Assembly (NCBI GenBank): GCA_016209035.1
Contig: JACQWX010000037.1
Coordinates: forward strand, 34,593 to 98,592
Origin: Elusimicrobiota bacterium
GTDB taxonomy: Bacteria > Elusimicrobiota > Elusimicrobia > UBA1565 > UBA9628
Length of the DNA stretch: 64,000 nucleotides
Direction of reading: 5' to 3'
The notes under the pieces were generated by a model. That model was not told the DNA's origin. It worked only from the letters and a program-made list of their open reading frames with translations, and did no database searches. This document shows, piece by piece, positions 195 through 56,431 of the stretch (within the stretch, counting starts at the first letter, position 1; every line of letters starts with the position of its first letter). A program made the translations under genes and the position numbers.

Positions 195-1277
195 CTAGAA
201 CGTCAGATGCGTCGAGCGCTTGAAGGTTAGGCCCGCGTGCCTGAAGTCGTCGATGTGCTCCTTCTGGAACTGTATGCCGGCCATCTTGAAGAACTTCGGC
301 CAGCTGATGCGGTTGATCCACTCGCCCATCCGCTCGTATTTCCGGGCGTTCTTGGCCCACAGGTCGACGAGGTTCCTCACGGCCTCGGTCACCTCGGGCC
401 AGCGCGGCGGGTTGTTCGGCAGATAGGGGATCGCCAGCTTGGAGAACATCGGCTCCACGCGCGCGTTGGAGACCTTCCCTCCGACCCAGATCGAGACGCC
501 GTCGTTCAAGGGATTGTTCATCTTCATGGCCGGGCAGACCGTGAAGCAGTTCGCGCAGAACATGCACTTCTCCTCGATGACCTCGACGGACGGCAGGCCG
601 TTGACCGTCGCGGGCCGGATGGCCGCGGTCGGGCAGGAGGCGCTGGCGCTGGGGATCTCGCAGAGCTTCTTGAGGTTCGCGTGGTCGAGCTTCGGAGGCC
701 GGCGGTGGATGCCGAGGATGGCGATGTCCGAGCAGTGCACCGCGCCGCACATGTTGAGGCAGCAGGCCAGGGCGATCCGGAGCTTGCCGGGGAGCTCCCT
801 CTGCTCGAAGCGCCCGATCAGGTCGTCCATGACGGACTGGACGATGCCCGAGGCGTCGGTCGCGGCCGAGTGGCAGTGGATCCACCCCTGGGTGTGGACG
901 ATGGCGGAGATCGCGTTGCCGATGCCGCCCACGGGATGGCCGAGCTTCTTGAGGTCGGCGATCAGCGGCTCGATATTCTCGGACTTGTCGGTCAGGAACT
1001 CCACGTTGTGGCGGCTGGTGAACCGGAAGTAGCCGTCGCAGTACTTGTCGGCCAGGTCGCAGTACAGGCGGATCTTGTCGATGCTGAGCAGCCGGCCGGA
1101 GGCCGCGCGCACGGTGAAGAGCTTGTCCCCCGACTCGGCGTGGTGGACCATGACGCCGGGCTTGAGTATCTCGTGGTACTTCCACTTGCCGTAGTTCTTC
1201 TTGATCGCCGGCGGCAGGAACCTCTCGTATTGCGGAGGGCCGAAATCGGTCCGTCTTTCCGCGACTGCTTGAGTCAT
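195..1277 (-). CDS. dsrB: Dissimilatory sulfite reductase beta subunit
   Basis: 360 aa from ATG 1277 ([36 protein letters not shown]...). Carries DsrB-type cluster motifs [11 protein letters not shown] and [14 protein letters not shown], and ferredoxin insert [12 protein letters not shown]. Follows dsrA after a 47-nt gap. The 606-aa track ORF is an upstream extension overlapping dsrA in another frame. Confidence 0.93.
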
Positions 1278-1324
1278 GTTTCTACCTCTCTTGTCTTGCT
1301 GGCTATCGTTCGCCGGCGCTTTCG

Positions 1325-2530
1325 CTACTTCTTCTCTCCTTCGCCTTCTTCCTCGAAATATTCCTCGTAGAACACGTACGGGTTCTCGCGCGGATGGGCC
1401 ACCATCTCGGGCTGGGGCTCGAGCCCGATCGCTTCCAGGAAGTTGCCCATGCCGACGCGCTGGATGAACTCGCCGATCCGCTCCCTGTTCTTGCCCTCCT
1501 CGCACCAGAGGTCCCAGATCTTCGTGACGATCTCCTTGAGGTCGGCGTAGGGAGGCTCCATCTTGGTGAAGGGGATCAGCACCGACGAGAGGAGCGCGCC
1601 CTCGATGATGGGCGCCTTGGAGCCGATGAGCACGGTCGCGCCGCGGTCCTTTCCGGGGGCGAGCGCCTTGGGCATGGCGTTGATGCAGTGCATGCAGCGG
1701 CGGCAGTACTGGTTGTCGATGTCCAGCTTCTTGCCGTCCCACTTCATGCACTTGGCGGGGCAGTTGCCGATCACGTCGTTCTGGATGTCCAGCCCGCCCT
1801 TGGCGTATTCCTGGACCGCGGCCTGGTCGACCTGGATGGCGTCGCGCCAGGTGCCGATGATGGACATGTCCGCGCGGGCGATGGAGGCCACGCAGTCGTT
1901 GGGGCAGCCCGAGAACTTGAACTTGAACTTGTACGGGAACGCCGGACGGTGGATCTCGTCCTGGAAGGCCATGGTGAAGTCGTAGCAGGAGCGCATGGTG
2001 TCGTAGCAGGCCCACTCGCAGCGCGCCTTGCCGACGCAGCAGCTAGGCGTGCGGACCGCGGAGCCCGAGCCTCCCAGGTCGAAGTCGAGAGCCCCAAGCT
2101 CCGCGAAGACGGGCTCGAGATCGGCGGTCTTGGTGCCGAGCAGGATGATGTCGCCGGTCGAGCCGTGCATGTTGGTCAGGCCGGAGCCGTGCTTCTCCCA
2201 GAGGTCGCAGATCTTGCGCAGGGCGTCGGTCTTGTAGAACCAGCCGGCCGGGTGGTTGACCCGGATCGTGTGGAAATGGGAGACGCCCGGGAACTTCTCG
2301 GGGAGGTCCGAGTACCTCCCGATGACGCCGCCGCCGTAGCCCATGACCCCGACGATGCCGCCGTGCTTCCAATGGCCGATCTTCTCCTTATAAGACTGCT
2401 CCAGCTGGCCGAGGAGGTCCCTGGCCATGGGGCTCTTCTTCGCGGCCGCCTTCATCTCCTTGACGAAGCTCGGCCACTTGCCCTTCTCCAGCTCATCGAG
2501 TAACGGAGTCTGCGGCATCTGCTCAGCCAT
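1325..2530 (-). CDS. dsrA: Dissimilatory sulfite reductase alpha subunit
   Basis: 401 aa from ATG 2530 ([27 protein letters not shown]...). Has siroheme/4Fe-4S Cys motif [20 protein letters not shown], and ferredoxin-like [12 protein letters not shown]. Confidence 0.93.
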
Positions 2531-2609
2531 GGTACCCTCTATCTGTTCCGGTTTGTCGTCCCGACAAGAGCGCCGTCCGGCGCGCAAGAACATCGGCTTC
2601 GAATGGCCT

Positions 2610-2674
2610 ATTGAACCTAATATCGGCCTAATATGAATTGACCTGGGTCAACCCGCCCTATTGACCCGGGTCAG
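2610..2674 (-). promoter_or_regulatory. dsrAB upstream module: two 14-bp TTGACC-N2-GGTCAA-type palindromes plus ATTAGGTTCAAT box
   Basis: Forward-strand sites are ttgacctgggtcaa (2638-2651) and ttgacccgggtcag (2661-2674), 9 nt apart. The 12-mer attgaacctaat (2610-2621) lies 16 nt from the proximal site. The same architecture occurs at 30377-30441. Confidence 0.6.
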
Positions 2675-8441: not shown

Positions 8442-8698
8442 GGCTTATCCTTGAAAATTTGTCGCTGGCCTTTATACTTTTCCTTGAAAGCTTTGATGGC
8501 TTGGTCAAATGCCCCGATGTTGGAAGGACCGCTGAGGATGTTGGATATTACGATGGCCTCAAACAGGTCGTTGAAGTCTTTCTGCTGCTGGTCCGCCTGG
8601 ATTTGGACCTGCTGGGATAGCTTATAGCTGCGCCAGCCCACCCACCACATGGCGACCGCGGCCACAGCCATTACCCAATCCGCCAATGTGCCCATCAT
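8438..8698 (-). CDS. Small single-pass membrane protein embedded in the type I R-M operon (unknown function)
   Basis: ATG 8698 overlaps the hsdS stop (ATGA) and the stop overlaps the hsdR start (8438-8441). 86 aa: MMGTLADWVMAVAAVAMWWVGW (TM) followed by a Q-rich linker and a lysine-rich tail. Lower G+C than its surroundings. Confidence 0.5.
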   Translation of the reverse strand: MMGTLADWVMAVAAVAMWWVGWRSYKLSQQVQIQADQQQKDFNDLFEAIVISNILSGPSNIGAFDQAIKAFKEKYKGQRQIFKDKP

Positions 8699-21658: not shown

Positions 21659-22950
21659 CAGTTCCTCCCGGCCGCGGACGCTTCGGCCGCAGCGATCAGG
21701 GCTCTCATGGCCGCGCCCGTGGCGTCGACCACCGAGGACGCCACGTCGAGCGGCCTCGTCACGGTTCCGGCGCCGATGACGCCCTTGCCCGTGTCCGGCG
21801 CGATGAAGCCGAACTCGTCCAAGGGGGTGTCGAGGGGGGGCTTCTCATCGGCCGTGTTGGGCACCATGCCGACGGCGAGCACCGCCATGTCGACCTCGGT
21901 CTTCGTGAGCTCCCCGGTCAGGGTGTTCTCGGCCTCGAGCACGAGGTTCCTGCTTCCTTCGACCTCGGTGATCGTGCCTACCTTCCCCCGGTGGAAGAAG
22001 AGTTTCTTGTCCTCCTGGGCCTTGACGTAGAAATCCTCCATCCGGCCCGGCGCGCGCACGTCGATGTAGAAGATGTGTATCTCCGCGTCCGGATACTGCG
22101 CGCGCACGTAGGTCGCCTGCTTCATGGAGGCGAGGCAGCAGACCGCGGAGCAATAAGGAAGGTGCTTCTCATCGCGCGAGCCCGCGCACTGGACGAACCC
22201 GACCTTCTTGAGCCCAACCTGGTCGGACGGCCGCACGAGCTTGCCGCCGGTCGGGCCGCTCTGCGAAGCCAGCCGCTCCATCATGGAGTTGGTCACCACG
22301 TTCCGGTACCGGCCGAACCCGAGCCGGTCGAGCTTCGCGGCGTCGTAGGGCTTCCAGCCGGTCGCCCAGACCACCGCGCCGACCTTCAAGGTCAAGGTCC
22401 GGGGCTTCATGTCGAGCTCCACGGCGCCGTAGGCGCAGGCCGCGGCTGCCTTCTTCATCCTCGGGTCGCCGGCGTGCTTGGGGTCCACGACGTAGCGGAA
22501 CGGATAGGCCATGAGGTGCGGCAGATAGACGGCCTTGGTCTTGTCGAGCCCGAAGTTGAAGTCGTTGTCGCGCTCGACCTCGCAGGCCTTCTCGCAGTCG
22601 CCGCAGGCCGTGCACTTCTCGTTGACGAACCGGGGATGGAGCTTGATGCGGGCCTCGTGCCCCCCGCGCCCGCCCGAGAGCCCCTCGACCTCGGCGAGGG
22701 TCAGGACCGTGATGGACGGGTTGGCCTTGATCCTCCTGAGGTTGATCTCGATGCCGCACGAGGGCGGGCAGAGCTTCGGGAAATACTGGTTGGTCGCGGC
22801 GACCCGCCCGCCCAGGGAGGGCTTGGCCTCGGAAAGGACGACGGTCTTGCCGGCCTCGGCGGCCTCGAGCGCGGCGGTCATGCCGGCGATGCCTCCGCCG
22901 ACGACCAGGATGTCGGCGCTCATCGAGTCTGCGATCTTCTGTTCAGCCAT
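21658..22950 (-). CDS. qmoA: Quinone-interacting membrane-bound oxidoreductase subunit A (HdrA-like flavoprotein)
   Basis: ATG 22950 (MAEQKIADSMSADILVVGGGIAGMTAALEAAEAG...). Contains CTACGDCEKAC and QCAGSRD...YCSAVCC motifs. Confidence 0.88.
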   Translation of the reverse strand: MAEQKIADSMSADILVVGGGIAGMTAALEAAEAGKTVVLSEAKPSLGGRVAATNQYFPKLCPPSCGIEINLRRIKANPSITVLTLAEVEGLSGGRGGHEARIKLHPRFVNEKCTACGDCEKACEVERDNDFNFGLDKTKAVYLPHLMAYPFRYVVDPKHAGDPRMKKAAAACAYGAVELDMKPRTLTLKVGAVVWATGWKPYDAAKLDRLGFGRYRNVVTNSMMERLASQSGPTGGKLVRPSDQVGLKKVGFVQCAGSRDEKHLPYCSAVCCLASMKQATYVRAQYPDAEIHIFYIDVRAPGRMEDFYVKAQEDKKLFFHRGKVGTITEVEGSRNLVLEAENTLTGELTKTEVDMAVLAVGMVPNTADEKPPLDTPLDEFGFIAPDTGKGVIGAGTVTRPLDVASSVVDATGAAMRALIAAAEASAAGRN

Positions 22951-22986
22951 GGTGTTCGACCCCCGATAACGGCCTTTGGAGAGCAA

Positions 22987-24129
22987 TCAGGACGCCGTCT
23001 TGCGCCGGCGTCCGGCGGCGTGCGCGTGGACGACGGCAAGGGCCCTGTAGAACATGTGCGCGAACTTCGAATACGGAGCGTACCACAACACGAAGAAGAC
23101 GACCACGAGGTGGACGTAATAGGCCGCGTAGGCGGCGTCGAGGCCCGAAAGACGGGTCAGCTGGGTCGTCATGCCGGTGACGAACGCCAGGAAGAGCATG
23201 ATGAGGAACAGCCAGTCCTGGTAGCCGTTGGCCCCGACCGACTCCTTGTCCGCGAGCCGGCGCACGAGCAGGATGCCGGTCCCGAGGATGCCCAGGACCC
23301 CGGAGAGGTTCCCCAGCCACTTGATGGGGTGCCCGAGCGGGATGGGCGGCGGATGGTGGAAGAGCTTGAGCTCGACGGCGCCCAGGCCCGCGGTCGCGGC
23401 CGCCCCGAAGAAGCCGAGGAAGACCATCAGATGCGCCCAGGAGCGCGTCTTGTTCGCGTCGCAGGAGAAGAAGGGCGTGTGGAACACGATGTCCTTGACC
23501 GCGGCGACGACCCCCGCGACGAAGCCGATGCCCGCACCGGACGAGCGCGATTCCAGCTGGTTCCAGAACCGCCAGAGCCCCGCGAAGGCGCAGGCGAAGA
23601 CCAGGATGTTGCCCGCGATGAAGAGGGGCTCGACCACGTGGATGTTGAACACCTTGTCGAACACGACCGCGTCGGCCAGGCCCGGCTCCCTCAGGGAGAG
23701 CTGGAGCTGCAGCGTCTTCGAGGCGAAGATGACCGCGGCGATGACGAGCATGGGCGCGAGGAACAGCAGCGGCAGGGCCCGCGGCGCGGCCAAGGCATGC
23801 CCCATGAAGGAAGGGAAGGCGAAGCGCTCGTAGACGAAGCTGCGGACCGCGGCCAGGACGTCGCCGGGCTTGGCCTCGCGCGGGCAGTAGGTCGAGCAGT
23901 CGTTGCACTGGTAGCACAGCCAGATGTCCGGGTCCTTGGAGAGCGTGTCGGCCTGGCCCCAGCCGGCCAGGAGCATCTCCTTCCTGGGGAAGGGCTTCTC
24001 GGTCGTGGAGAGGCTGCAGACCGACGAGCAGGTCGCGCACTGGTAGCATTTCTTGACGTCTGCTCCGCCGGCCTTCTTCACCGACCGGATGAATTCGAGA
24101 TCAGGTTCCACGACTCGCGCTTCGGCCAT
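22987..24129 (-). CDS. qmoC: QmoC: HdrC-like 2x[4Fe-4S] domain fused to a multi-helix cytochrome-b-like membrane domain
   Basis: ATG 24129 is preceded by AAGGAG. Motifs CYQCATCSSVC and CYQCNDCSTYCP, then about 6 hydrophobic helices. The track start at 24156 is a TTG overlapping the upstream stop. Confidence 0.85.
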   Translation of the reverse strand: MAEARVVEPDLEFIRSVKKAGGADVKKCYQCATCSSVCSLSTTEKPFPRKEMLLAGWGQADTLSKDPDIWLCYQCNDCSTYCPREAKPGDVLAAVRSFVYERFAFPSFMGHALAAPRALPLLFLAPMLVIAAVIFASKTLQLQLSLREPGLADAVVFDKVFNIHVVEPLFIAGNILVFACAFAGLWRFWNQLESRSSGAGIGFVAGVVAAVKDIVFHTPFFSCDANKTRSWAHLMVFLGFFGAAATAGLGAVELKLFHHPPPIPLGHPIKWLGNLSGVLGILGTGILLVRRLADKESVGANGYQDWLFLIMLFLAFVTGMTTQLTRLSGLDAAYAAYYVHLVVVFFVLWYAPYSKFAHMFYRALAVVHAHAAGRRRKTAS

Positions 24130-24152
24130 GCACGCGCTCCTTTTCCTTTCGG

Positions 24153-25997
24153 TCAACGCATTCTCCGTCTCGCCCTCTCCAGGGCCTCTTTCGCCGGGGT
24201 CAAGTCGATCCCCATGTCTTGCCCCTCCTGCTTCCGGCTGTTGCGGTCAGCCTCATCCTTGCGTCGCGCACTGTCCCTCGGCTCCCTGGAGCCGCCCTCG
24301 GCACGCCTCCGCATCTCGGCCATGAGCGCCAACAGCTCGTTGATGCCCCCCGCGTCCGTCAGATGCCCGTAATACCGCAGCAAGTAGTCAGCATAGCACC
24401 AGCCCACGTCGCCGCTGGCATATCTCATGGCGAGAGCGTCGCGGAACGTTGGATCGCCGATGCGCCGGCTCAAGATGCCCAGGGCTTCGGCCGAAGGCTC
24501 CGCGATCTTCCGATCGAGACAGGTCCGGACCAGGAACAACGCGGCATGGGCCTGATCGAGGCGCTTCAAGCGGAAGTGGCACTTGACGTCCGGGGGCTTC
24601 GCATCCGCCTTCCTGAACACATGCCATCCCCCGCGGTCCACGCCATCCCAAACGAACCCATAGGTCGCGGCCAGCTTGTCCAGCGCCGCCTCGGCTTCCC
24701 TCTCTGCCTGCTCGCGCTTGCGTTCATCGTAGCGCGCCTTGCCCGCGTTGACCCAGCCAGCCTCAAGCCGCTCGCCGCCCTTGAGCTTCCGGAGCAGCTC
24801 CATGGTCAACTCGTACCAGCATGCGCCTTGGTGCGATGCGAGATCCCTCTCCATCCTGGCCATCTCGGCGTCGTAGACCGCGGGCTCGTAGAGAGCAAGC
24901 TCATCGAACACGCCCTGGGAATGGGTCATGCCATGACAGACCTGGTCCGCATAGACACCCAGCGATATCATCTGGTTGCGTCTTTGGTTCTGCGCATCCA
25001 GCTTTCTTGCGCCCTCGGCGATCTGCTTCAACGTGCGCCGCACATTCCCTTCCTTGGATACCAAATCAAAGTCAGGCCCAAAAGCACGCTGATCCGACAA
25101 CTTGTAAGGATCGAGGCCCGCCTTCAATTTCTCGTCCCATTGCTTGGCCAGCGACTCCTCTCCCGAAATCTTCTTTTTGAATTCCACAACATCTTCATCG
25201 GTGAAATCAAAAGTCGACTTGAGCGAATCGAGATGCCCCTTCCTATGCCGAACCTCCACTGCATGCTTGTTTCTCAAATCGACATCCTTCTTGAGATGCT
25301 CCTGGAAATGCTCCTTCTCGTGAGAAAGCGTGTAGGCGAGCATGCCGGGATACTTGAAGGCATCCGGGCCGATATGAACCTTCCCGTCAGGACCCGTTTC
25401 CCCGGCGCGGCCTTTGCCTTCGCCAAGGGACTCGTTATATTTCGGATCCCAAGCCGCCGTTTCGCCGATATAGCACTCCACATACCCGGGGTCAGGCGTC
25501 CCATCGGCCAACTTGTGGCATGGCGGGCCGGAAAGGACGGGCCCCGATTTCTTGGGGGGAGAAATATGGTAGACCTCCATCGCGACCTTGATCGCCTCGC
25601 TGTGAAGCCTGGTCGATTCCTCCTGGTATTGCTCGTAATCCTTTATCACACGAGCGTAGTCCGTGTAGGTCCAGGGCGAATCAAATATCTTCTTGGCATA
25701 GTCGTTTACGAGCCCATCCGAGGCTTCGTAGAGGGCCCGTTGCCACTCGGACCAGTTCTCGTATCCCTCCGGGCGCCTCATGCCGAGCCACTTGCCATCC
25801 TCGTCACGCAAGCCGAGTTTTCTCTCGAAATCTTTCTTCTGCGCGACGAGATCCTGATTCTCTTTTTTGTTCTTGTGCCTCTTGATGGCATCCAATGTCT
25901 GCTGGACGCGGTCGATCTCGCCCTTGGGAGGCCTGTAAGGCGCCGCCTCGATACGGGCCGGGCACCATGCCAGCCACAGGATCAGACCCGCTGTCAC
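24153..25997 (-). CDS. Hypothetical secreted/charged protein with an HExxH-like motif (lower G+C)
   Basis: 614-aa ORF with a GTG start overlapping the upstream stop (GTGA). Signal-peptide-like N-terminus MTAGLILWLAWCPARIEAA, and HEKEHFQEH. I recognised no family. Confidence 0.55.
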   Translation of the reverse strand: MTAGLILWLAWCPARIEAAPYRPPKGEIDRVQQTLDAIKRHKNKKENQDLVAQKKDFERKLGLRDEDGKWLGMRRPEGYENWSEWQRALYEASDGLVNDYAKKIFDSPWTYTDYARVIKDYEQYQEESTRLHSEAIKVAMEVYHISPPKKSGPVLSGPPCHKLADGTPDPGYVECYIGETAAWDPKYNESLGEGKGRAGETGPDGKVHIGPDAFKYPGMLAYTLSHEKEHFQEHLKKDVDLRNKHAVEVRHRKGHLDSLKSTFDFTDEDVVEFKKKISGEESLAKQWDEKLKAGLDPYKLSDQRAFGPDFDLVSKEGNVRRTLKQIAEGARKLDAQNQRRNQMISLGVYADQVCHGMTHSQGVFDELALYEPAVYDAEMARMERDLASHQGACWYELTMELLRKLKGGERLEAGWVNAGKARYDERKREQAEREAEAALDKLAATYGFVWDGVDRGGWHVFRKADAKPPDVKCHFRLKRLDQAHAALFLVRTCLDRKIAEPSAEALGILSRRIGDPTFRDALAMRYASGDVGWCYADYLLRYYGHLTDAGGINELLALMAEMRRRAEGGSREPRDSARRKDEADRNSRKQEGQDMGIDLTPAKEALERARRRMR

Positions 25998-27112
25998 GGA
26001 ACTACCTCGATCTCCACGGTGTTCGATTCAACTCGAACGCATGGCGAGTCGGAGAATCGATCATCCTCGAACCCATCTCTGTCGCATCGTTCGGCTTCGG
26101 CTCGCCATTTGCGGCGCTTCTCCAAGTCCTCCGCCTTCATGGCGCCCCATTCCTTTCGAACCTCCTGTTTCATCTTGTCGAAAGGCTCATGCCCTAGAGT
26201 CTGACGCAACTGCTCTATTTCCTCATCGGCAGACAAGGGCCCAAGGCCGCGAAGACTGTCATAGACGGCCTTCATGCGGTGGATGCCTGGCTTCCTGATG
26301 AAGAACCCATCAAGGATCCGGAAGCCGGCAACGGTCTGGGGCGGCTTCATGGGATCGAACTGATAGCGCTTGACTCCCCCGAACTCCTTCTGGTATTGCT
26401 CCTGCAACTTCCAGAGTTCCTTGGCGGAGGCGATCTCGGCGCTGGTCGAGTCCGGCCTGATCCTGGCATCCCTCAGGCCCCAGCCCTCCTCATCCTTGAG
26501 CGGGGCAACGACGGAAGGAGTGGCGGTATAAGTCTCGCCGGGCTTGACGGTCATCCCTGTCGGGCCCCGCTGCCCCCCCATCGAGTTGCAGAGTTCGCCT
26601 CCGCAATCGTTGGCCCAGAGGTTGAATTCACCGTGCTGGCCCCATTCCAGCCAGCAATTCGGCTTAAGGAGCTTGCCGTCAGGGCCCGTGATCTCGAAGT
26701 ACGTCCTCTTCTTATCTTGGAAGTTGTCGCAGATGAACGCCTGGTTGATCCAGAACCCGTCCATGATGAAGACTTCCCTGTAGCCGAGGTTCTTGATACG
26801 AAGCAGGTACCAGGGCTTCTCGCCCACATGCCACTGCCTGCGCGCCAGATCCAGGGTCAACTGGAGGAACGGCCTGGGCTGGGGCTTGAGGCAAGTCTTC
26901 TGCGCCAGCGGGATCAGGAACAAGGCGCCCACGACCGCCAACAGCGCTGAAGAACCGATGAGGAATCTTCTCTTGCCGACCAGAACCAACACGAGGATCG
27001 CCGTCGCTGCCAGGCCGATCTTGGGCCACACCCCGGATAGCAGGAAACTCACGAGCGCCAACAGCAGCACGGGCATCTCCGTCAACACGCGCAGCCCCAG
27101 CGATTCATTCAA
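25994..27112 (-). CDS. Hypothetical membrane protein (three N-terminal TM helices + soluble domain, lower G+C)
   Basis: 372-aa ORF. The start is uncertain (TTG 27112 or ATG 27076). TM segments PVLLLALVSFLLSGVW, AATAILVLVLV and SALLAVVGALFLIPL. I recognised no family. Confidence 0.55.
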   Translation of the reverse strand: MNESLGLRVLTEMPVLLLALVSFLLSGVWPKIGLAATAILVLVLVGKRRFLIGSSALLAVVGALFLIPLAQKTCLKPQPRPFLQLTLDLARRQWHVGEKPWYLLRIKNLGYREVFIMDGFWINQAFICDNFQDKKRTYFEITGPDGKLLKPNCWLEWGQHGEFNLWANDCGGELCNSMGGQRGPTGMTVKPGETYTATPSVVAPLKDEEGWGLRDARIRPDSTSAEIASAKELWKLQEQYQKEFGGVKRYQFDPMKPPQTVAGFRILDGFFIRKPGIHRMKAVYDSLRGLGPLSADEEIEQLRQTLGHEPFDKMKQEVRKEWGAMKAEDLEKRRKWRAEAERCDRDGFEDDRFSDSPCVRVESNTVEIEVVP

Positions 27113-27559: not shown

Positions 27560-27693
27560 GTCGGTCTCCTCGCCATGCCGGATCGGCGCGATAAGATTAG
27601 ATATTCTCGGGCGATGAAGTCAAACCCGGGCGCCTGATTCCCGTCGGGCGCAGGGCGCAGGAGAGAGAATTGCCTGGGGGAGGTTCTTTTGTT

Positions 27694-29235
27694 ATGATGT
27701 CGTGCCTTGATGCCATCGGAAGGCGGAAAGACCCTGTGCGGATAATCTGCGTCTCGCGCGGCAGCCACAGCCGCGGCAAGGAGTTCGCCGAGTGCCTGGC
27801 GAAGAAGCTGGGCTTCGGCTGCTTGGGACGCGAGGACTTGGTGGAGGAGGCGGTCAAGGCCGGCGTGGCGGTCAGCAAGCTGGAGATGGCCGTCGTGAAG
27901 CAGGCCGTCTTCTCCGAGCGTCTCGCCCGGGAGAAGGAGCAGTACCAGGCGTTGCTGACATCGAGCCTCTGCGCGCGCGCTCTCCGGGAGGACCTCGTCT
28001 ACCACGGCTGGACCGGCCATCTGCTCCTGCGCGGGGTGAGCCACGTGCTCCGCATCCGGGTCGTGGCCGACATGGACTATCGCGTGCGGGCGGTGATCCA
28101 GCGCACGGGCTTGAGCCGGCCGAAGGCGGTCGATTTCATCGAGAAGGTGGAGGAGGACCGCAGGAGATGGGTCCGGGCCTTCTACGGCGTGGCCTGGGAG
28201 GCTTCCTCGCAATACGACGTGATCCTGAACCTCGAGCAGATGGGCGTGGAGAACGCCGCCTCCGCGATGTGCGCGGTCGCGGCCCTTCCGGAGTTCCAGG
28301 CCAGCCCGGCTTCCCGCAAGGCCTTGGAGGACCTCTATCTCGGAGCCCGCGCCCGCGTGGCCCTGTCCCGGCACGAGGCCACCCGCGACGCGCATCTGAA
28401 GGCGGCCGCGACGGGGGGGGTGGTCTCCGTCACCTACCTTCCCCAGCACTCCTCCATGGCGCAACGTATCCCGGAAGCGCTCAAGGGGCTCGAGGGGGTG
28501 CGCGAAGTCGTCTGCACCATGGCCGAGACCAGCATCCTCTGGATCGGGGAGCGCTTCACCCCCGCCTGCCGGGCCTTCGGCTCCGTCACGCAGATCGCCG
28601 AGAAATGGAACGCGGCGATCGAGATCATGAGGCTGATCCCCGCCTCCGAGCCCGGCCCCGCGCCGGCGGACGGGCCTCAGCGTCCGCCGGCACAGGGCGA
28701 AGGGAAGACGGCCGCGCCCGCGCCGGCGGACGGCGAGGAAGCGCCCGACGGGAACGGCGGCGTGAAGGAGACCCTGGGGGAGCTCATCGAGAGGGGCCGG
28801 GCGGGAGGCGCGCGCACCGTTCGGGGAGGGCCTGAGGCCGTGCTGGCATCGGTCGATCCGAAGGTCCCCTACAGCCTGATCGTGATCGGGGACGTGTTCC
28901 TCTCCAAGGGCCACGCGGCCCGAATCCGCCTGACCCGTGAGCTGGCGGGCTTCCTTTTCGACAAGCTGAAGCGCCCCGTGATCATGGCCGAGGAGCTGGC
29001 GGCGCAGTACTTGTTCGGCCCCCGCCAGCTGGTCCAGCTCGTCTCGTGCCTCCTGGGGACCGCGGTCATCTACGCCGCGGTCTTCACCCATCAGGCCCAG
29101 GCGCTGGCCTTCCTTCAGGCCGGGGGGAAGACCAGATTCCTCGCGGTGGCCGCGACCCTGCTGTTGGTGCCGGCCGTGGCCTATCTCTACGGGACCGCGG
29201 CCCGTCTCGTTTTGAAGCTGATCAGGATGGAGTGA
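27694..29235 (+). CDS. Cytidylate-kinase-like-family domain + BON-like domain + Ala/Pro/Gly-rich linker + C-terminal TM anchor (paralog 1 of 4)
   Basis: ATG 27694 follows GGAGG. N-terminus VRIICVSRGSHSRGKEFAECLAKKLGF and motif YHGWTGHLLLRGVSHVLRIRVVADMDYRV align with three paralogs. C-terminal hydrophobic segments LVSCLLGTAVIYAAVF and FLAVAATLLLVPAVAYLY. Confidence 0.7.
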   Translation: MMSCLDAIGRRKDPVRIICVSRGSHSRGKEFAECLAKKLGFGCLGREDLVEEAVKAGVAVSKLEMAVVKQAVFSERLAREKEQYQALLTSSLCARALREDLVYHGWTGHLLLRGVSHVLRIRVVADMDYRVRAVIQRTGLSRPKAVDFIEKVEEDRRRWVRAFYGVAWEASSQYDVILNLEQMGVENAASAMCAVAALPEFQASPASRKALEDLYLGARARVALSRHEATRDAHLKAAATGGVVSVTYLPQHSSMAQRIPEALKGLEGVREVVCTMAETSILWIGERFTPACRAFGSVTQIAEKWNAAIEIMRLIPASEPGPAPADGPQRPPAQGEGKTAAPAPADGEEAPDGNGGVKETLGELIERGRAGGARTVRGGPEAVLASVDPKVPYSLIVIGDVFLSKGHAARIRLTRELAGFLFDKLKRPVIMAEELAAQYLFGPRQLVQLVSCLLGTAVIYAAVFTHQAQALAFLQAGGKTRFLAVAATLLLVPAVAYLYGTAARLVLKLIRME

Positions 29236-29241
29236 GCCGCC

Positions 29242-30357
29242 ATGCCCGGATTCGGAGAATCCTTCATCGTCCTCAGCTGGGCCGCCGCCTTCCAGGTGGT
29301 CCTGCTGGGCTTCGTCGGCGGAGTCTTGAGCGGCTTCATCGGGAGCGGCGGGGCTTTCTTCATGACCCCGGGCATGATGAACCTGGGGGTGCCCGGGGTC
29401 GTCGCGGTCGGCAGCAACATCACCCATAAGTTCGGCAAGGCCATGATGGGGTCCAAGAAGCACGCGGAGATGGGCAACGTCGACAAGAAGCTGGGGGTCT
29501 TCCTTATCCTGACCTCGGCCGCGGGGATCAGGCTCGCGGTGCACGTCAACAGCATGCTCTTCGCGGGCGGGGCCGGCAAGGGGGCCGCGAAGAGCGCGGC
29601 CGCCGACCTCTACATCAGCGGCGTCTTCGTCTCGGTCCTTTCCCTGGTCGCGGTCTCGATCCTGCGGGATGCCTGGAGGAGCAGGCAGGAGGAGGGCGAA
29701 GGCCCTTCCCTGCGGATCGCCGAATGGCTCTCCGGCCTGCGCCTCTTTCCGATGATCTCCTTCCCGGTGGCGGACGTCAAGGTCTCGTTGTGGATCCTGC
29801 TGATCGTCGGGCTGGCCACGGGCTACATGGCGGGCACCATCGGCGTGGGCGGGTTCATCGGGGTGCCCGCCATGATCTACGTCTTCGGGGTCCCCACCAC
29901 CGTCGCCGCCGGCACCGAGCTCTTCCTCGCCATGTTCATGGGCGCCTTCGGCGCCCTGAACTATGTCTACGAGGGCATGGTGGACATCCGCCTGACCTTG
30001 CTGCTCTACCTAGGCTCCCTGGTGGGGGTCTACCTGGGCGCGTACGGGACGAAGGTGGTCAAGGAGGTGATGATCCGCGTCGTGACGGGCCTCATCATCC
30101 TGCTGTGCGTCCTGAGCCGGGGCATCGCCATCCCCATCTACCTGAGGCAGTTGGGATGGGTGAACCTCCCGGCCTCCTGGGACGGCGCCTTCAACGCGGC
30201 CAGCAAGGCGCTCCTGTTCGCCAGCGGCATCACCGGCGTGGTGGTCATCCTGTTCCACGTGTTCCGGGCCTACTGGCAGCGGGGCAAGATCCACGCCAGC
30301 CTCACCGCCGCGGCCTGCGCCGAAGGCGCAGGCCGCGGCGGCAGTCTCTCCCCATGA
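29242..30357 (+). CDS. TauE/SafE (TSUP) family anion permease
   Basis: 371 aa, polytopic, with a duplicated G-rich motif (GFVGGVLSGFIGSGGAFFMTP; GYMAGTIGVGGFIGVPAMIY). Starts 6 nt after the preceding gene. Confidence 0.85.
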   Translation: MPGFGESFIVLSWAAAFQVVLLGFVGGVLSGFIGSGGAFFMTPGMMNLGVPGVVAVGSNITHKFGKAMMGSKKHAEMGNVDKKLGVFLILTSAAGIRLAVHVNSMLFAGGAGKGAAKSAAADLYISGVFVSVLSLVAVSILRDAWRSRQEEGEGPSLRIAEWLSGLRLFPMISFPVADVKVSLWILLIVGLATGYMAGTIGVGGFIGVPAMIYVFGVPTTVAAGTELFLAMFMGAFGALNYVYEGMVDIRLTLLLYLGSLVGVYLGAYGTKVVKEVMIRVVTGLIILLCVLSRGIAIPIYLRQLGWVNLPASWDGAFNAASKALLFASGITGVVVILFHVFRAYWQRGKIHASLTAAACAEGAGRGGSLSP

Positions 30358-30376
30358 CAAGGGTCAGCCTTACCCC

Positions 30377-30441
30377 ATGACCTGCGTCAATCTAAGGGGT
30401 TGACCCGGGTCAATGGACGGAGGGCCGCAATTAGGTTCAAT
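30377..30441 (+). promoter_or_regulatory. sat upstream module: two 14-bp palindromes plus ATTAGGTTCAAT box (second copy of the dsrAB module)
   Basis: atgacctgcgtcaa (30377-30390), 9 nt, ttgacccgggtcaa (30400-30413, perfect palindrome), 16 nt, attaggttcaat (30430-30441). Confidence 0.6.
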
Positions 30442-30536
30442 GAGGCGATGTCAGTCCGAGTTCTCACCGAGAATCCCCGCGGAACGGCGGTCTCGTCAAA
30501 CCAGCAGCAACGTCCATCTATAGGAGAGTGAAAGAA

Positions 30537-31754
30537 ATGGGTACATCGAAGCTGATTTCCCCGCACGGCAGCGAGACGCTGAAGATTCTGCTCCTGGAAG
30601 GCCAGGCGCGGGCGGAGGCGCTGAAGAAGGCAGAGAAGCTCCCCAAGTTGGTCATGACCTCGCGCGAGACCGGCGACCTCATCATGCTGGGCATCGGAGG
30701 GTTCACTCCCTTGACCGGGTTCATGGGCCATGACGACTGGAAGGGCGTCTGCGAGAGCATGAAGACGACGAAGGGCCTGTTCTGGCCCATCCCGATCACC
30801 CTGTCCCACGACAAGAAGATCGACGCCGGGACCGAGGTCGCGCTCGTCTCCGACGAGACCAACGAGGTCATGGGCATCCTGAAGGTGACGGAGTCCTACA
30901 AGATCGACAAGGCCTTCGAGTGCAAGCACGAGTTCACGACGACCGACGCGGAGCATCCGGGCGTCCAGATGGTGATGGCCCAGAAGGAGTGGAACGTCGC
31001 GGGCGCCGTCACGGTCCTCTCGGAGAGCTATTTCCCGGAGAAGTTCGCGGGCCTCTACCAGCGCCCTGCGGAGAGCCGCAAGGTCTTCGAAGAGAGGGGC
31101 TGGAAGACGGTCGCTGCCCTGCAGCTGCGCAACCCCATGCACCGCTCCCACGAGTACCTGGCGAAGATCGCCATCGAGGTCTGCGACGGCCTCTACATCC
31201 ACCAGCTCGTCGGCAACCTCAAGCCCGGCGACATCCCGGCCGACGTCCGGGTCAAGTGCATCAACGCCCTGGTCGAGGGCTACTTCGACAAGAACCGGGT
31301 CTTGATGGGCGGCTATCCGCTCGACATGCGCTACGCGGGCCCCCGCGAGGGCCTTCTGCACGGCATCTTCCGGCAGAACTTCGGCTGCACGCACATGATC
31401 ATCGGCCGCGACCACGCCGGCGTGGGCAACTACTACGGGCCGTTCGACGCGCAGGACGCCTATCACAAGCTCTGGGACGGGGCGCTCCAGTGCAAGATGC
31501 TGCCCATCGACTGGACCTTCTGGTGCTACAAGTGCGGCGGCATGGCCTCCATGAAGACCTGCCCGCACAAGAAGGAGGACAGGCTGATGCTGAGCGGCAC
31601 CGCGCTTCGCAAGGGCCTCTCCGAGGGCGGCCAGATCCCCAACGAGTTCAGCCGGCCCGAGGTGCTGGCCATCCTGAAGGATTATTACGCGAATCTGACG
31701 GAGAAAGTGGAGGTCAAACTGCACGGTCACGCGACCGGCGCCGCGCAGAAGTGA
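30537..31754 (+). CDS. sat: Sulfate adenylyltransferase (ATP sulfurylase)
   Basis: [16 protein letters not shown]..., with [11 protein letters not shown] and [10 protein letters not shown] motifs. The ATG is in the track frame, about 10 nt after AGGAG. The track start GTG 30528 abuts the RBS and is less likely. Confidence 0.93.
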
Positions 31755-31800
31755 ACGACGGAAAGGGCGTGCGACAGAAACCAACAAGGAGGAGTGTAGG

Positions 31801-32256
31801 ATGCCAAGTTATGTGATCACCGAGAAGTGCGACGGGTGCAAGGCGCTGGATAAGACCGCTTGTCAGCATATTTGCCCCAACGACCTGATGGTCCTCGACA
31901 AGGAGACCAAGAAGGCCTACAACCGGGATCCGCAGATGTGCTGGGAGTGCATGTGCTGCGTGAAGATCTGCCCGGTCCAGGCGATGGAAGTCCGCGGCTA
32001 CGCAGACTTCGTGCCCATGGGGGCGATGGTCACGCCGCTGCGCAGCACCGACTCCATCATGTGGACGATTAAGTTCCGGAGCGGGACCCTGAAGAGGTTC
32101 AAGTTCCCGATCAGGACCACCCCCGAGGGATCGGCCGTGCCCGACGGCGGCTTCAAGTCGTCGGACGACCTGAAGAGCCCGCTGCTCTTCACGGAGCCCG
32201 ATTCCAGCGGCATGAAGGAACTGCCGCCGGTGAAGTCCCTGAGCAAGGTGGCCTGA
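31801..32256 (+). CDS. aprB: Adenylylsulfate (APS) reductase beta subunit
   Basis: MPSYVITEKCDGCKALDKTACQHICPNDLM...CWECMCCVKICP. 151 aa with a typical AprB C-terminal tail. Confidence 0.93.
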   Translation: MPSYVITEKCDGCKALDKTACQHICPNDLMVLDKETKKAYNRDPQMCWECMCCVKICPVQAMEVRGYADFVPMGAMVTPLRSTDSIMWTIKFRSGTLKRFKFPIRTTPEGSAVPDGGFKSSDDLKSPLLFTEPDSSGMKELPPVKSLSKVA

Positions 32257-32298
32257 AGAAGCGTCCAGACAAATCTAACTTGAGGAGCAGATAAACAA

Positions 32299-34167
32299 AT
32301 GGCGAAATTCGAGACGGTGGAAGTTCAGACTGACGTTCTCATCCTCGGCGGGGGCATGGCAGCCTGCGGCGCCGCGGTCGAGGCCGCGTATTGGGCCAAG
32401 AAAAACGGCCTCAAAGTCACCCTGGTGGACAAGGCCTGCATGGAGCGCTCCGGCGCCGTGGCCATGGGCCTCTCGGCCATCAACCAGTACGTCGGCGTGA
32501 AGGACGGCCAGAACACGGTCAAGGACTACGTCGAGTACGTGCGCAACGACCTCATGGGGATCACCCGCGAGGACCTCGTGGCGAACATCGCCCGGCACGT
32601 GGACTCGACTGTGCATCTCTTCGAGAAGTGGGGCCTCCCCATCTGGACCGACGAGAAAGGCGCCTACGTGCATGAGGGCCGCTGGCAGCTCATGATCAAC
32701 GGCGAGTCCTACAAGATCGTCGTGGCCGAGGCGGCGAAGAACGCCCTGGGCGCCGAGAACGTCTACGAGCGCGTGTTCATCACCGAGCCGATCGTGGAGA
32801 ACGGCCGCTGCGTGGGCGCGGTGGGCTTCAGCACCCGCGAGGAGAAGTTCTACGTGTTCAAGGCGAAGGCCGTCCTGGCCGCCATGGGCGGCGCGGTCCA
32901 CGTCTTCAAGCCGCGCTCCGGCGGAGAGGGCCTGGGCCGGTCCTGGTACCCTCCGTTCAACTCGGGCGCCAGCGCCTACTTCACCATCAAGGCCGGCGCC
33001 GAGATGACCTGCCAGGAAGTGCGGTTCATCCCTGTCCGGTTCAAGGACGCCTACGGTCCAGTCGGCGCCTGGTTCCTCCTGTTCAAGTCCCGGGCCACCA
33101 ACGGCCTCGGCGAAGACTACATGCAGACCAACAAGACCGAACTGGAGAAATGGAAGCCCTACGGCGCGGTCAAGCCCGTTCCCGCCAACCTGCGCAACTG
33201 GCTCATGATGCTCGACGTCATGGCCGGCAAGGGGCCCATCTTCATGCGCACGGAAGAGGCCATCGAGAAGCTCTCCGCCGCGGTGTCAGACCCGAAGGAG
33301 CGCAAGAAGAAGCTCAAGGATCTCGAGAGCGAGGCATGGGAGGACTTCCTCGACATGACCATCTCGCAGGCCATCCTGTGGGCGGCCACGGACACCATGC
33401 CAGAGGAGAGACCCTCCGAGATCGCTGCGTGCGAGCCCTACTTCATCGGCTCCCACTCCGGCGCCTCCGGCGCGTGGGTCAGCGGCCCCGAGGACATCGC
33501 CCCGAAGCAGTACTGCTGGGGTCCCGCGAACATGACGACGGTGAAGGGCCTCTTCGCGGCCGGGGACGCTTCCGGCGCGTCGAGCCACAAGTTCTCCTCG
33601 GGCTCGCATACCGAGGGGAGGATCGCGGCCAAGTCGGCCGTGCGCTTCGCGGTCGAAAACCCCTCCATGCCCGCGATCGACAACGCCAAGATCGAGAAGC
33701 TCCGGGAGCGCATCCTGCGCCCCATGGAGCTCTTCGAGACTCACAAGGGCGCGACGACCGACCCGGACGTCAACCCGAACTACATCAGGCCGAAGCAGTA
33801 CCTCTTCCGCCTGCAGAAGCTCATGGACGAGTACGCCGGCGGCGTCTCCACCAACTTCACCACCAGCGAGAAGCTCCTGAACAAGGGGCTCGAGCTCCTG
33901 AAGGCGCTGAAGGAGGACTCGGAGAAGCTCGCGGCGGAGACCCTGCACGAGCTCATGAGGGTCTGGGAGAACATCCATCGGACCTGGCAGGCCGAGAGCC
34001 ACATGCGGACCATCCTGTTCCGTGACGAGACCCGCTGGCCGGGCTACTACTTCCGGTCGGACAGGCCGCAGATGAAGGAAGACTGGAAGGTGTTCGCGAA
34101 CTGCACCTACAACCCCGAGAAGAACGAGTGGGAGATGAAGAAGAGGGAGATCCTTTCCATCTACTAA
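32299..34167 (+). CDS. aprA: Adenylylsulfate (APS) reductase alpha subunit
   Basis: 622 aa. FAD fold DVLILGGGMAACGAAVEA; the sequence is AprA-like throughout (RSWYPPFNSGASAYF, FAAGDASGASSHKFSSGSHTEGR). Confidence 0.95.
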   Translation: MAKFETVEVQTDVLILGGGMAACGAAVEAAYWAKKNGLKVTLVDKACMERSGAVAMGLSAINQYVGVKDGQNTVKDYVEYVRNDLMGITREDLVANIARHVDSTVHLFEKWGLPIWTDEKGAYVHEGRWQLMINGESYKIVVAEAAKNALGAENVYERVFITEPIVENGRCVGAVGFSTREEKFYVFKAKAVLAAMGGAVHVFKPRSGGEGLGRSWYPPFNSGASAYFTIKAGAEMTCQEVRFIPVRFKDAYGPVGAWFLLFKSRATNGLGEDYMQTNKTELEKWKPYGAVKPVPANLRNWLMMLDVMAGKGPIFMRTEEAIEKLSAAVSDPKERKKKLKDLESEAWEDFLDMTISQAILWAATDTMPEERPSEIAACEPYFIGSHSGASGAWVSGPEDIAPKQYCWGPANMTTVKGLFAAGDASGASSHKFSSGSHTEGRIAAKSAVRFAVENPSMPAIDNAKIEKLRERILRPMELFETHKGATTDPDVNPNYIRPKQYLFRLQKLMDEYAGGVSTNFTTSEKLLNKGLELLKALKEDSEKLAAETLHELMRVWENIHRTWQAESHMRTILFRDETRWPGYYFRSDRPQMKEDWKVFANCTYNPEKNEWEMKKREILSIY

Positions 34168-38621: not shown

Positions 38622-41195
38622 ATGGGCTGGGGAGACTACTTCTTCCGGCCGAAGAAGCGGCGGGACATCCGGCATCTCAAGGACGTCTTGAACCGGTTCC
38701 GCGAGCTGATCGGCCTCAACAACACGGCCCTGGAGCTCATCGCGGACATGGGGGAGAAGCTCAGCGGCGACTACGTCTTCGACAGCCAGTACCTGCGCCA
38801 GGTGACCGCCGATCTGGAGAAGGCCGTCCAAGGGGTCGTCCACAACCTCAACGCGATGTCCGAAGGGAGGTATCCGAAGCTCCTGGACGCGTTCGAGACC
38901 GCCAGGGCCGGCGTCAGGGCCGAGCTCGACGGCCGCCGCGCCGTCCCCGGAGCCGGCTTCGTGATCCGGCTCGATGAGGCCTCGCAGGACCTCTCCGACG
39001 CGACGGGCGAGAAGATGGCGACGCTGGGGGAGCTCGGACGCCTGGGTCTGAAGGTCCCGGATGGGTTCGTCGTCACGACGCACGCCTGCCGGACGTTCCT
39101 CGAAAGCAACGGGATCGACGCCGAACGGGCCATTGAGGAGCTCTCCTCGCTAGCCGGGGAGCCGCTGGAGAAGGCCTCGGACGCGATCCGGGAGAGGATC
39201 AGGAAAGGCATCCCGCCCCCCCTGCTGAGGAAGTCCGTCCAGGAGGCGCTCTCCCGCCTGGGGAAGGGACGGACCCTGGCGGTGCGCAGCAGCGCGCTCG
39301 GCGAGGACGGGACCCTGAGCTTCGCCGGGTTGTACGGTACCGTCCTCAATGTCGCCCCCCCCCGCTTCTTCGAGGCCTACCAGGAGGTGCTCTCAGGACT
39401 CTTTGGCCCGCAGGTGGTCTCCTACCGCGCCAAGCAGCCTCGGGTTGCCGGGGCCGCCCCCAAGGAGACAGGCATGGCCGTGGGCTGCATGACCATGGTC
39501 CCCGCCAGGGCCGGCGGGGTGTGCTACAGCCTGAACCCCTCGAGTCCGGAGAGGGAGTGCATAGTGATCTCCGCCTCATGGGGGCTGGGGAAGCTGGTGG
39601 TGGAGGGCGAGGGCGGAGTCGACCAGTTCGAGCTCGCCAGGACCGCCCCCCACCAGGTCGTGTCCCGGAGGATCGCGCGCAAGGAGCGCCAATGCGTCTT
39701 GTCGCGCGCAGGAGGGGTCGCGCTGGAGCCCGTCCCGGCCGAACGGCAGGCGGTCCCCTGCATGAGCGACGAGGCCCTCTCCAGACTGGCGCGCATCGTC
39801 GTGAAGACGGAAGCCTACTTCCGGCGTTTTCAGGACGTCGAATGGGCTTTAGACGAGGCGGGAGAAATCCATGTCCTGCAGGCCCGCCCCCTGCGCATCC
39901 TCCTCGGCAAGGATCGCTGCCGCGCCGACGTCGCCTCCGCGGTGGGCAGGTATCCCGTCCTCCTCCAGGGCCGGGGAGTCGTGGCATGCCGCGGGATCGC
40001 CGCCGGCGCCGTCTTCCACGTGGCGCGGGAGGAGGACATGAGACGCTTCCCCGCGGGCGCCGTGCTGGTCGCCAAGCACACCTCGCCGCGTCTCTCCAGG
40101 CTCGTCTGCGAGGCGAGCGCCATCGTCACGGGCGTGGGGGCGGTCACCGGGCATCTGGCCACCGTCGCAAGGGAGTTCCGGACCCCCGCCATCGTGGACA
40201 CGGGAACGGCCACGCGGGTCCTCAAGCCCGGCATGCGGGTCACGGTGGACGCCGAAGAGAACATCGTCTACGAGGGCGTCGTCCCCGAGCTCATCAGGGC
40301 CCAGCTCTGCGTCGCCGACCCCTATGAGGACGCCGTCGAGTTCAGGCTTCTGCGCCGCCTGCTCAGGAGGATCGCCCCGCTCCACCTCACCACGCCCGAC
40401 TCCGGCGATTTCCGCCCGGAGAGCTGCACGACCTACCACGATGTCATCCGATTCGCCCACGAGATGGCGGCCACGGAGATAGCGACGAGCCTTGACGCCG
40501 GCCGCGCGGGCGGGGAGCTCCCGGCCGTCAAGCTCGACCTGCCCATCCCGCTCGATCTGACCGTGGTCGACATCGGGGAGGGCCTCAACGCCGCCGCGGC
40601 GGGCAAGGCGAAGGCGCGCCTTGAAGAAGTGGCCTGCGCGCCGCTGCGGATCATGCTGGAGAGTCTTCTGGAGCCGGGGGTGTGGCATTCGGAGCCGGTG
40701 GACATCGACTTCGGGGGCTTCATGTCGAGCCTGACCCGGACCGCTGCGATGGACGCCGCCTCGATGGGCTCGGCCGGCCGCAACATCGCCATCGTCTCGG
40801 CGAACTACATGAACTTGAACCTCCATCTTGGCTATCATTTCAACATGGTGGACGTCTATCTCAGCGGCGTCAGGAACGAGAACTACATCTATTTCCGCTT
40901 TCTCGGGGGCGTCACCGACATCACGCGGCGCTCCCGGCGCGCGCGGCTCCTGGCCGACATCCTGGAGAGGAACGACTTCACCGTCGAGATGAAGGGAGAC
41001 CTGGTGGTCTCCCGGACCAAGAAGATGTCCACCGAGGAGATGGAGCATCGCCTGCGCGTGCTGGGCTACCTGGTGGGCTTCACCCGGCAGCTGGACGTCC
41101 TGCTACAGACGGAGGAAAAGGTGGACGAGTACGTCGAGCTGTTTGAAGATAGGTTCCTGGCCCGCAAGCGGGACCGGGAGGAGGGATCGGCATGA
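38622..41195 (+). CDS. PEP-synthase-like protein: ATP-grasp + swivel phospho-His domain, no TIM barrel, uncharacterised C-terminal domain (paralog 2)
   Basis: 857 aa. Motifs TGEKMATLGELGRLGLKVPDGF, AVRSSALGEDGTLSFAGLYGTVLNV and VTGVGAVTGHLATVAREFRTPAIV. The C-terminal domain is shared with 15991-18606. Confidence 0.8.
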   Translation: MGWGDYFFRPKKRRDIRHLKDVLNRFRELIGLNNTALELIADMGEKLSGDYVFDSQYLRQVTADLEKAVQGVVHNLNAMSEGRYPKLLDAFETARAGVRAELDGRRAVPGAGFVIRLDEASQDLSDATGEKMATLGELGRLGLKVPDGFVVTTHACRTFLESNGIDAERAIEELSSLAGEPLEKASDAIRERIRKGIPPPLLRKSVQEALSRLGKGRTLAVRSSALGEDGTLSFAGLYGTVLNVAPPRFFEAYQEVLSGLFGPQVVSYRAKQPRVAGAAPKETGMAVGCMTMVPARAGGVCYSLNPSSPERECIVISASWGLGKLVVEGEGGVDQFELARTAPHQVVSRRIARKERQCVLSRAGGVALEPVPAERQAVPCMSDEALSRLARIVVKTEAYFRRFQDVEWALDEAGEIHVLQARPLRILLGKDRCRADVASAVGRYPVLLQGRGVVACRGIAAGAVFHVAREEDMRRFPAGAVLVAKHTSPRLSRLVCEASAIVTGVGAVTGHLATVAREFRTPAIVDTGTATRVLKPGMRVTVDAEENIVYEGVVPELIRAQLCVADPYEDAVEFRLLRRLLRRIAPLHLTTPDSGDFRPESCTTYHDVIRFAHEMAATEIATSLDAGRAGGELPAVKLDLPIPLDLTVVDIGEGLNAAAAGKAKARLEEVACAPLRIMLESLLEPGVWHSEPVDIDFGGFMSSLTRTAAMDAASMGSAGRNIAIVSANYMNLNLHLGYHFNMVDVYLSGVRNENYIYFRFLGGVTDITRRSRRARLLADILERNDFTVEMKGDLVVSRTKKMSTEEMEHRLRVLGYLVGFTRQLDVLLQTEEKVDEYVELFEDRFLARKRDREEGSA

Positions 41196-49160: not shown

Positions 49161-51525
<2,365 letters not shown>

Positions 51526-56371: not shown

Positions 56372-56431
56372 GGTCCATCCATCATACCGAACAACGGGAT
56401 TCAACGCAAGCGTCCGCCGTAGGCGCGTTTG

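Follow-up and report, generated by a model that had tools for sequence, protein, structure and literature searches.

A putative FNR-type promoter module shared by the sat-aprBA and dsrAB operons of a groundwater Elusimicrobia genome

The DNA analyzed here (the window, a stretch of 64 kb with 65.5% G+C from a groundwater Elusimicrobia MAG) carries two sets of sulfate-reduction genes, the identities of all genes being assigned by Pfam. On the minus strand, dsrA (1325-2530) is followed by dsrB (195 to about 1290); on the plus strand, sat (30537-31754) is followed by aprB (31801-32256) and aprA (32299-34167). A SulP/STAS permease gene and a CBS protein gene lie upstream of dsrA, and the gene of a TauE-like exporter lies upstream of sat. 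A complete type I restriction-modification system (5427-13198, minus strand; hsdR, hsdS, a YhcG/DUF1016 nuclease gene and hsdM) sits between the SulP-CBS genes and a two-component system. Qmo-like genes are found at 19412-24156 on the minus strand, arranged C-A-B like those of the related MAG loci L323 and L338, and two ORFs devoid of a Pfam match (24153-25997 and 25994-27112) precede this cluster. The neighbourhood is unusually rich in signalling genes: orphan receiver domains are interspersed with sulfur genes and with sulfate or sulfite transporters, a Cytidylate_kin2 domain is present in four proteins (27670-29235, 42006-42845, 55124-56791 and 59026-60432), some of which are fused to receiver, CBS or BON domains, and two large PPDK_N/PEP-utilizer proteins are encoded at 15991-18606 and 38622-41195. 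Regulatory proteins encoded in the window include a LysR regulator (61996-62916) and a protein with a cNMP-binding domain only, besides the orphan receiver domains; neither a Crp/Fnr regulator with an HTH domain nor a TetR gene was found in the 64 kb.

The segment upstream of sat, at 30377-30441 of the plus strand, had been described in the initial annotation as an ordered array of two inverted repeats and a 12-mer, and this layout was confirmed to the base: ATGACCTGCGTCAA, 9 nt, TTGACCCGGGTCAA, 16 nt and ATTAGGTTCAAT. The distal FNR-type box ATGACCTGCGTCAA (30377..30390) deviates by one mismatch from TTGAC-N4-GTCAA and is separated by the 9-nt spacer TCTAAGGGG from the proximal box TTGACCCGGGTCAA (30400..30413), which is a perfect 14-bp palindrome. 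The 16-nt spacer that follows contains the motif GGCCG (30423..30427). The 12-mer ATTAGGTTCAAT (30430..30441), which we read as an extended -10 region, ends with the putative -10 hexamer TTCAAT (30436-30441), 22 nt past the proximal box. Between the 12-mer and the ATG of sat at 30537, which is preceded by AGGAG, there are 95 nt. One more 23-bp step upstream of the module, and hence in the same register, a third FNR-type box, ATGACAAGGGTCAG (30354..30367, plus strand), carries two mismatches and overlaps with the TauE-like gene at its stop codon; it has no counterpart in the dsrA copy and is by itself weak evidence.

The twin of this module lies on the minus strand at 2610-2674 and consists of a distal box CTGACCCGGGTCAA (2661..2674), 9 nt, a proximal box TTGACCCAGGTCAA (2638..2651), 16 nt and the 12-mer ATTAGGTTCAAT (2610..2621, with its putative -10 hexamer TTCAAT at 2610-2615), followed by 79 nt to the dsrA ATG at 2530. 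As had been claimed, the order of the elements, the 9- and 16-nt lengths of the spacers and the 12-mer are the same in both copies and the spacer sequences have diverged, the 16-nt spacers having GGCCG in common. The modules are identical at 47 of 65 positions and the identity is concentrated in the boxes, in GGCCG and in the 12-mer. Their local alignment reached a score of 45, compared to a mean of 14.8 and a maximum of 33 for shuffled sequences (0 of 1000 shuffles reached 45). The 60 nt upstream of each module showed no similarity beyond chance (610 of 1000 shuffles scored as well), and the module thus has a sharp 5' edge. Both copies are intergenic, each is oriented toward its operon, and both fill the short gap that extends from the stop of the upstream gene to the operon they face. 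Combined, the intergenic position, the orientation and the sharp edge support on computational grounds the initial view of an operator/promoter module common to dsrAB and sat-aprBA. Similarity resumes in the presumptive 5' UTRs, where the sat and dsrA leaders share CGCnGnACGGCGnTCTnGTC, with 16 of 20 positions identical (10 of 1000 shuffles scored as well); the motif reads CGCGGAACGGCGGTCTCGTC in the sat leader (30478..30497, plus strand) and CGCCGGACGGCGCTCTTGTC in the dsrA leader (2563..2582, minus strand), and the related GGCGGCACGGCGTTTT is present in the dsrA leader of MAG JBDRPD01 (locus L338, about 9965-9985). Its distance from the -10 hexamer varies from 34 to 43 nt among these three leaders, and a small hairpin is found at the motif in both window copies, not in L338.

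The placement of the boxes in the window is not random. When TTGACNNNNGTCAA (TTGAC-N4-GTCAA) was searched allowing at most one mismatch, five matches were detected in the 64 kb for 0.86 expected; 100 shuffled versions all gave fewer. Four of these matches are the four boxes of the modules, confined to two intergenic gaps. The fifth, TTGACCGGGGTGAA at 15120, falls within a histidine-kinase gene and was regarded as a chance occurrence. The 12-mer ATTAGGTTCAAT is present in exactly two copies, with no other site in the window within two mismatches. No FNR-like box was found before the Qmo-like cluster of the window.

Promoters with the same organization were identified in related Elusimicrobia genomes. 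Aligned on their boxes, six promoters (the two of the window and those of loci L334, L305, L229 and L338) follow the scheme box, 9 nt, box, 22 or 23 nt, T[AT]nA[AT]T, the -10-like hexamers being TACAAT in L334, TACATT in L305, TATACT in L229, TAGAAT in L338 and TTCAAT in the window. In MAG JACRDU01 (L305, 67% G+C), TTGACCCAGGTCAA-9-TTGACCCGGGTCAT is located in a 98-nt gap directly after a Crp/Fnr gene whose product carries cNMP_binding and HTH_Crp_2 domains; TACATT is found 23 nt past the boxes, and the ATG 6 nt further on opens the gene of a small secreted peptide with cysteine repeats. In another assembly, the orthologous locus (L334) has TTGATCTAAATCAA-9-TTGACCGGGGTCAT-22-TACAAT in the same place; the distal box of this promoter is the canonical FNR consensus, and TAGGTACAAT of this promoter aligns with TAGGTTCAAT of the window. 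In MAG UBA9639 (L229), the same peptide gene is preceded by TTGACCGCGGTCAA-9-TTGACCGTTGTCAT-23-TATACT. As the ATG follows the -10 hexamer by only 6-9 nt in L305 and L229, the position of the promoter is fixed at these two loci. The regions concerned are 3760-3925 in L334, 5605-5865 in L305 and 7780-7960 in L229. The peptide encoded after this promoter in two MAGs is small and secreted and carries PCV(W/F/Y)PNxCG repeats. In L334, no ORF follows the promoter; a stretch of about 80 nt, possibly a small RNA, is found instead. A GC-rich hairpin, GACAGCCCC...GGGGCTGTC, closes this stretch and did not pass the terminator scan.

A candidate target shared with the window was found in MAG JBDRPD01 (L337/L338), whose DsrA is 79% identical to that of the window and whose dsrA promoter reads ATGACCGGGGTCAA-9-TTGATCTAGATCAA-23-TAGAAT. 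There, ATATTGGGTAGAAT matches ATATTAGGTTCAAT of the window at 11 of 14 positions and the spacers differ; the GGT just upstream of the -10 hexamer recurs in L334, L305 and L338. The recurrence of one geometry with other spacers at Elusimicrobia promoters, including this dsrA promoter, agrees with the proposal, made at first from the two window copies, that selection has acted on protein-binding geometry, the agreement being computational. In the same MAG, two weak boxes 9 nt apart precede the qmoCAB-like operon (L338, 5006-5100), 22 nt before a consensus TTGACA-17-TATATT promoter, and would sit near -64.5 and -87.5.

What appears from its sequence to be a promoter module common to dsr and sat is found again in a second genome, where it has a sequence version of its own. 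In MAG JACQWW01, whose DsrA, 82% identical, is the best match to that of the window among those bearing an organism name, the upstream regions of dsrA (L322) and sat (L339) have in common about 115 nt, about 93% identical, organized as TTGACGGACRTCAT-8-ATGACGGCCATCAA-8/9-TTGACATGGTCAA-GGAA-ATTAGCCAGAAT with FNR-like boxes. When the region upstream of dsrA in L322 was shuffled 20000 times, a box pair at this spacing appeared in 7 of the shuffles. The distance from the boxes to the -10 hexamer is greater by about 10 bp and a consensus TTGACA -35 is present, so the sign of the regulation may differ or be more complex there. The dsrA promoter of a further Elusimicrobiota locus (L323) is free of boxes and has an ordinary TTGATA-17-TAAAAT instead, and the tandem boxes of L211 and L252 lack a -10 hexamer at 22-23 nt, which means that not every tandem pair follows this grammar. 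At 80 sat loci of Zixibacteria and Ignavibacteria, boxes were not enriched (0.42/kb upstream of sat versus 0.37/kb elsewhere), indicating that the module is specific to its lineage and was not carried along with the genes.

The proximal boxes of both window copies contain an exact TTGA-N6-TCAA and the distal boxes are one base off. [quoted passage not shown] The organization resembles that of class II FNR promoters of E. coli such as narG, dmsA, nirB and fnrS, where a 14-bp inverted repeat is built around a TTGA-N6-TCAA core. In that organism, class II sites overlap the -35 region at about -41.5 or -42.5, no good -35 hexamer is present, the targets serve anaerobic respiration, and 19 of 23 directly FNR-activated promoters have a site at -41.5 +/- 4 (PMC3688515). 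In the window, with the hexamer put at the usual -12 to -7 position, the center of the proximal box would fall at about -41.5 and that of the distal box at about -64.5, with the weak third box of sat at -87.5. No sigma-70 -35/-10 pair was found in either promoter region of the window, as expected for an activator-dependent promoter. Several features differ from the E. coli promoters (consensus TTGAT-N4-ATCAA): the half-site is TTGAC and not TTGAT, the second site is always 23 bp upstream, and the system, known from sequence alone, belongs to an uncultured Elusimicrobia host in which the targets are dissimilatory sulfate-reduction genes.

We consider it probable that the stretch is a class II activator-dependent promoter shared by sat-aprBA and dsrAB, with tandem sites for an FNR-like regulator. 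Each of the two, perhaps three, 14-bp inverted repeats would be the site of one dimer of the Crp/Fnr family, with dimers spaced 23 bp center to center. The dimer bound at the proximal box would replace the missing -35 contact and recruit RNA polymerase, and the perfect identity of the 12-mer in the two copies may reflect contacts of the polymerase with an extended -10 region. The regulator is predicted to carry an iron-sulfur cluster as its sensor of oxygen or redox state and to bind as dimers in the anoxic state. As the same module precedes dsrAB, the two sulfate-to-sulfide operons, sat-aprB-aprA (30537..34167, plus strand) and dsrAB (195..2530, minus strand), would be switched together; anoxia would turn both on and allow sulfate respiration, from sulfate to sulfide. 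The two operons thus probably belong to one regulon responsive to oxygen or redox state. The transcription start, the binding protein, the activation and the signal sensed are what we infer from the arrangement of the elements. A weak point of this promoter is the hexamer TTCAAT, which lacks the A at position 2 of a -10 hexamer; were TAGGTT the -10 instead, the center of the proximal box would move to about -37.5.

The likely regulator of the window module is an FNR-like protein with four cysteines that is found throughout the Elusimicrobia and whose gene would lie outside the window. Related MAGs encode this protein, and its gene adjoins such boxes at the two orthologous loci L305 and L334. 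The family of the L305 regulator is conserved across Elusimicrobia, with 225 proteins at E below 1e-20 and identities of 58-96% among the 120 of them that were listed. In 41 aligned members, C11, C14, C20 and C63 do not vary, and the recognition helix LTIETTVRL varies little or not at all. The C-x2-C-x5-C pattern has what we take to be the spacing of the three FNR cluster cysteines, and the helix presumably resembles the GLTVETISRLL of FNR. Only the three N-terminal cysteines of the Elusimicrobia protein follow the FNR spacing; C63 is not at the position of FNR Cys122, so that a cluster like that of FNR, in which four cysteines hold an oxygen-labile [4Fe-4S] cluster, is only putative. Beside this candidate, the cNMP-binding-only protein of the window (155 aa, a Crp-like sensor with no HTH domain; 44768-45235, minus strand) could act in the same circuit as a partner or modulator. 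Its ortholog in MAG JACQWW01, 71% identical, is encoded divergently beside sat (L339, 651-1118, minus strand).

The most serious alternative differs from the activator model only in sign and signal. A regulator of the same Crp/Fnr family, HcpR-like, would repress its targets, or its signal would be a different one, for instance nitric oxide or nitrite, a reading that we regard as unlikely; sulfate reduction would then be shut off under another electron acceptor or under stress. The box is the FNR-like consensus of HcpR, as in the FNR-like variant of the HcpR regulon (Rodionov et al. 2004, 2005), and Desulfovibrio HcpR is predicted to control sat and apsAB from sites read as repressing (PMC545781). 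These Desulfovibrio sites are CRP-like, TTGTGA-N6-TCACAA, and differ from the TTGAC-N4-GTCAA boxes found here; moreover, the HcpR regulon of Desulfovibrio does not include dsrAB, which the present module precedes. The hallmark of HcpR, sites before hcp/frdX and hcpR beside hcp, does not appear in the 64-kb window, where no gene for hcp or a hybrid-cluster protein was found among the annotated ORFs, and a TPR-protein gene, not hcp, neighbours the candidate regulator at four of the five loci looked at. The cysteine pattern of this candidate is FNR-like, unlike Porphyromonas HcpR, a heme-based sensor of nitric oxide devoid of the cysteine motif (PMC12750200). Repression would be favored if TAGGTT were the true -10, as the proximal box near -37.5 would then be off the activating face, and it gains from JACQWW01, where the box-like TTGACATGGTCAA overlaps the consensus -35. 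Against it, the missing -35 hexamer leaves little basal promoter to repress in either copy of the window, and the 22-23 nt that separate boxes and good -10 hexamers in four related promoters fit activation. On its sequence, the module would work like a class II FNR promoter with a box that is the FNR-like motif of HcpR, and it is a candidate member of either regulon.

A second alternative assigns the boxes to tandem operators of a repressor of the TetR family or of another family distinct from Crp, which we regard as improbable. It stems from Ruegeria, where tandem TGACCnnGGTCA boxes 9-10 nt apart (L326, 2400-2500) lie between a TetR_N gene and the gene of a flavodoxin-like NAD(P)H oxidoreductase. 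Among the matches listed in the genome collection, the pattern TGAC-N4-GTCAA-N9-TTGAC-N4-GTCAA was found mostly in Rhodobacteraceae, Bradyrhizobium and Prevotella, with the Elusimicrobia loci L305, L211, L229 and L252 also listed. In Rhodobacteraceae, tandem TTGACCnnGGTCAA with a 9-nt AT-rich spacer recurs in many of the loci L201-L318, neighbouring genes having been checked at L326 only; this tandem probably serves as a TetR operator whose sequence coincides with that of an FNR-like box. The occurrence of one DNA pattern beside a TetR gene means that the protein family cannot be told from the motif alone. The Elusimicrobia boxes, however, keep only the outer TTGA...TCAA and vary in the inner CC..GG (TTGATCTAAATCAA, TTGATCTAGATCAA and TTGACGGACGTCAT), an FNR-like behavior unlike that of the Rhodobacteraceae sites with their strict inner TGACC..GGTCA. 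No tetR-family gene is found in the window or near any Elusimicrobia instance, and it is a Crp/Fnr gene that the boxes adjoin at two orthologous loci.

The distribution of the module bears on a last explanation. The shared elements do not behave as the dispersed repeat that the initial annotation named as a possible objection: two module copies were found in the 64 kb and none in the metagenome scan. Stricter scans of the genome collection and of the metagenomes yielded no further copy of the module (the source genome is in neither collection), and the tandem-box pattern is rare, with six stretches in the genome collection. A looser pattern, GTCAA-N14-18-ATTAGGTTCAAT, gave chance matches in AT-rich genomes and was rejected; none of the matches listed was the module. 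A reading of the leaders as RNA structures was likewise rejected, their folding being no better than that of shuffles. That the copies are functionless leftovers of a duplication or mobile repeat, or RNA hairpins or terminators of the upstream genes, as their start about 10-20 nt from the upstream stop codon (SulP, TauE) and the duplicated modules of JACQWW01 might suggest, is very unlikely given the concentration of conservation in boxes and 12-mer between diverged spacers, the rarity of the pattern, the geometry kept in other genomes with unrelated spacers, and the leaders and promoter regions themselves, in which folding z-scores were 0.14 and 0.47, no Rfam family matched and no terminator-like site was found.

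Control of the whole pathway by one regulator, as expected from the FNR-like activator, has a parallel in Rex of Desulfovibrio. The Rex operator is TTGTGAA-N4-TTCACAA; by direct reading of both copies, the boxes, with their TTGAC/GTCAA half-sites, do not fit it. In Desulfovibrio, Rex sites precede sat, qmoABCD, apsAB and dsrABD (PMC4045070). The protein and the motif are different here, Rex being a repressor of another family than the Crp/Fnr candidate.

The origin of the module was considered together with that of the genes it precedes. The initial annotation argued against a recent duplication, and in this respect it stands: the window copies are probably an older, diverged pair and not independent inventions. 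Duplication as such is still their probable origin; the near identity of the two JACQWW01 copies over their common stretch indicates that the regulon probably grew by duplication of a promoter module. DsrA and Sat of the window have no close relatives, their best matches (about 80-85%) being from Zixibacteria, Ignavibacteria, Elusimicrobia and metagenome contigs, whereas AtpD, the ATP synthase beta subunit (50101-51525), is in a 90% cluster with the Elusimicrobia protein MBI5211541.1 (contig JACRDT010000046.1), a match on which the assignment of the window to an Elusimicrobia MAG was based. The G+C content at third codon positions is host-like (0.92-0.94). These sequence comparisons suggest that the sulfate-reduction genes were acquired horizontally a long time ago.

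Combining these lines, we advance a more complete scenario as a tentative proposal, held with somewhat less than even confidence: a cysteine-rich, lineage-specific FNR-like regulator of Elusimicrobia would directly co-activate sat-aprBA and dsrAB, and in some genomes qmo, and the acquired genes would have been captured through a ready-made cassette of box, 9 nt, box, 22 nt and TWnAAT, first installed and later duplicated. The kind of switch is already known and belongs to the textbooks; the lineage and the content of the regulon, dsrAB plus sat-aprBA under FNR-type boxes, are new. [quoted passage not shown] If the activator reading is right, one FNR-like protein sensing oxygen or redox state would gate dissimilatory sulfate reduction in groundwater Elusimicrobia, and a grammar of two TTGAC-N4-GTCAA boxes separated by 9 nt and placed 22-23 nt before a -10 hexamer could serve to predict the rest of the regulon. 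The module offers a concrete and testable case of the integration of acquired respiratory genes into the regulatory network of a host. The more complete scenario, if true, would make it a clean case, found in nature, of regulatory capture through duplication of a promoter module.
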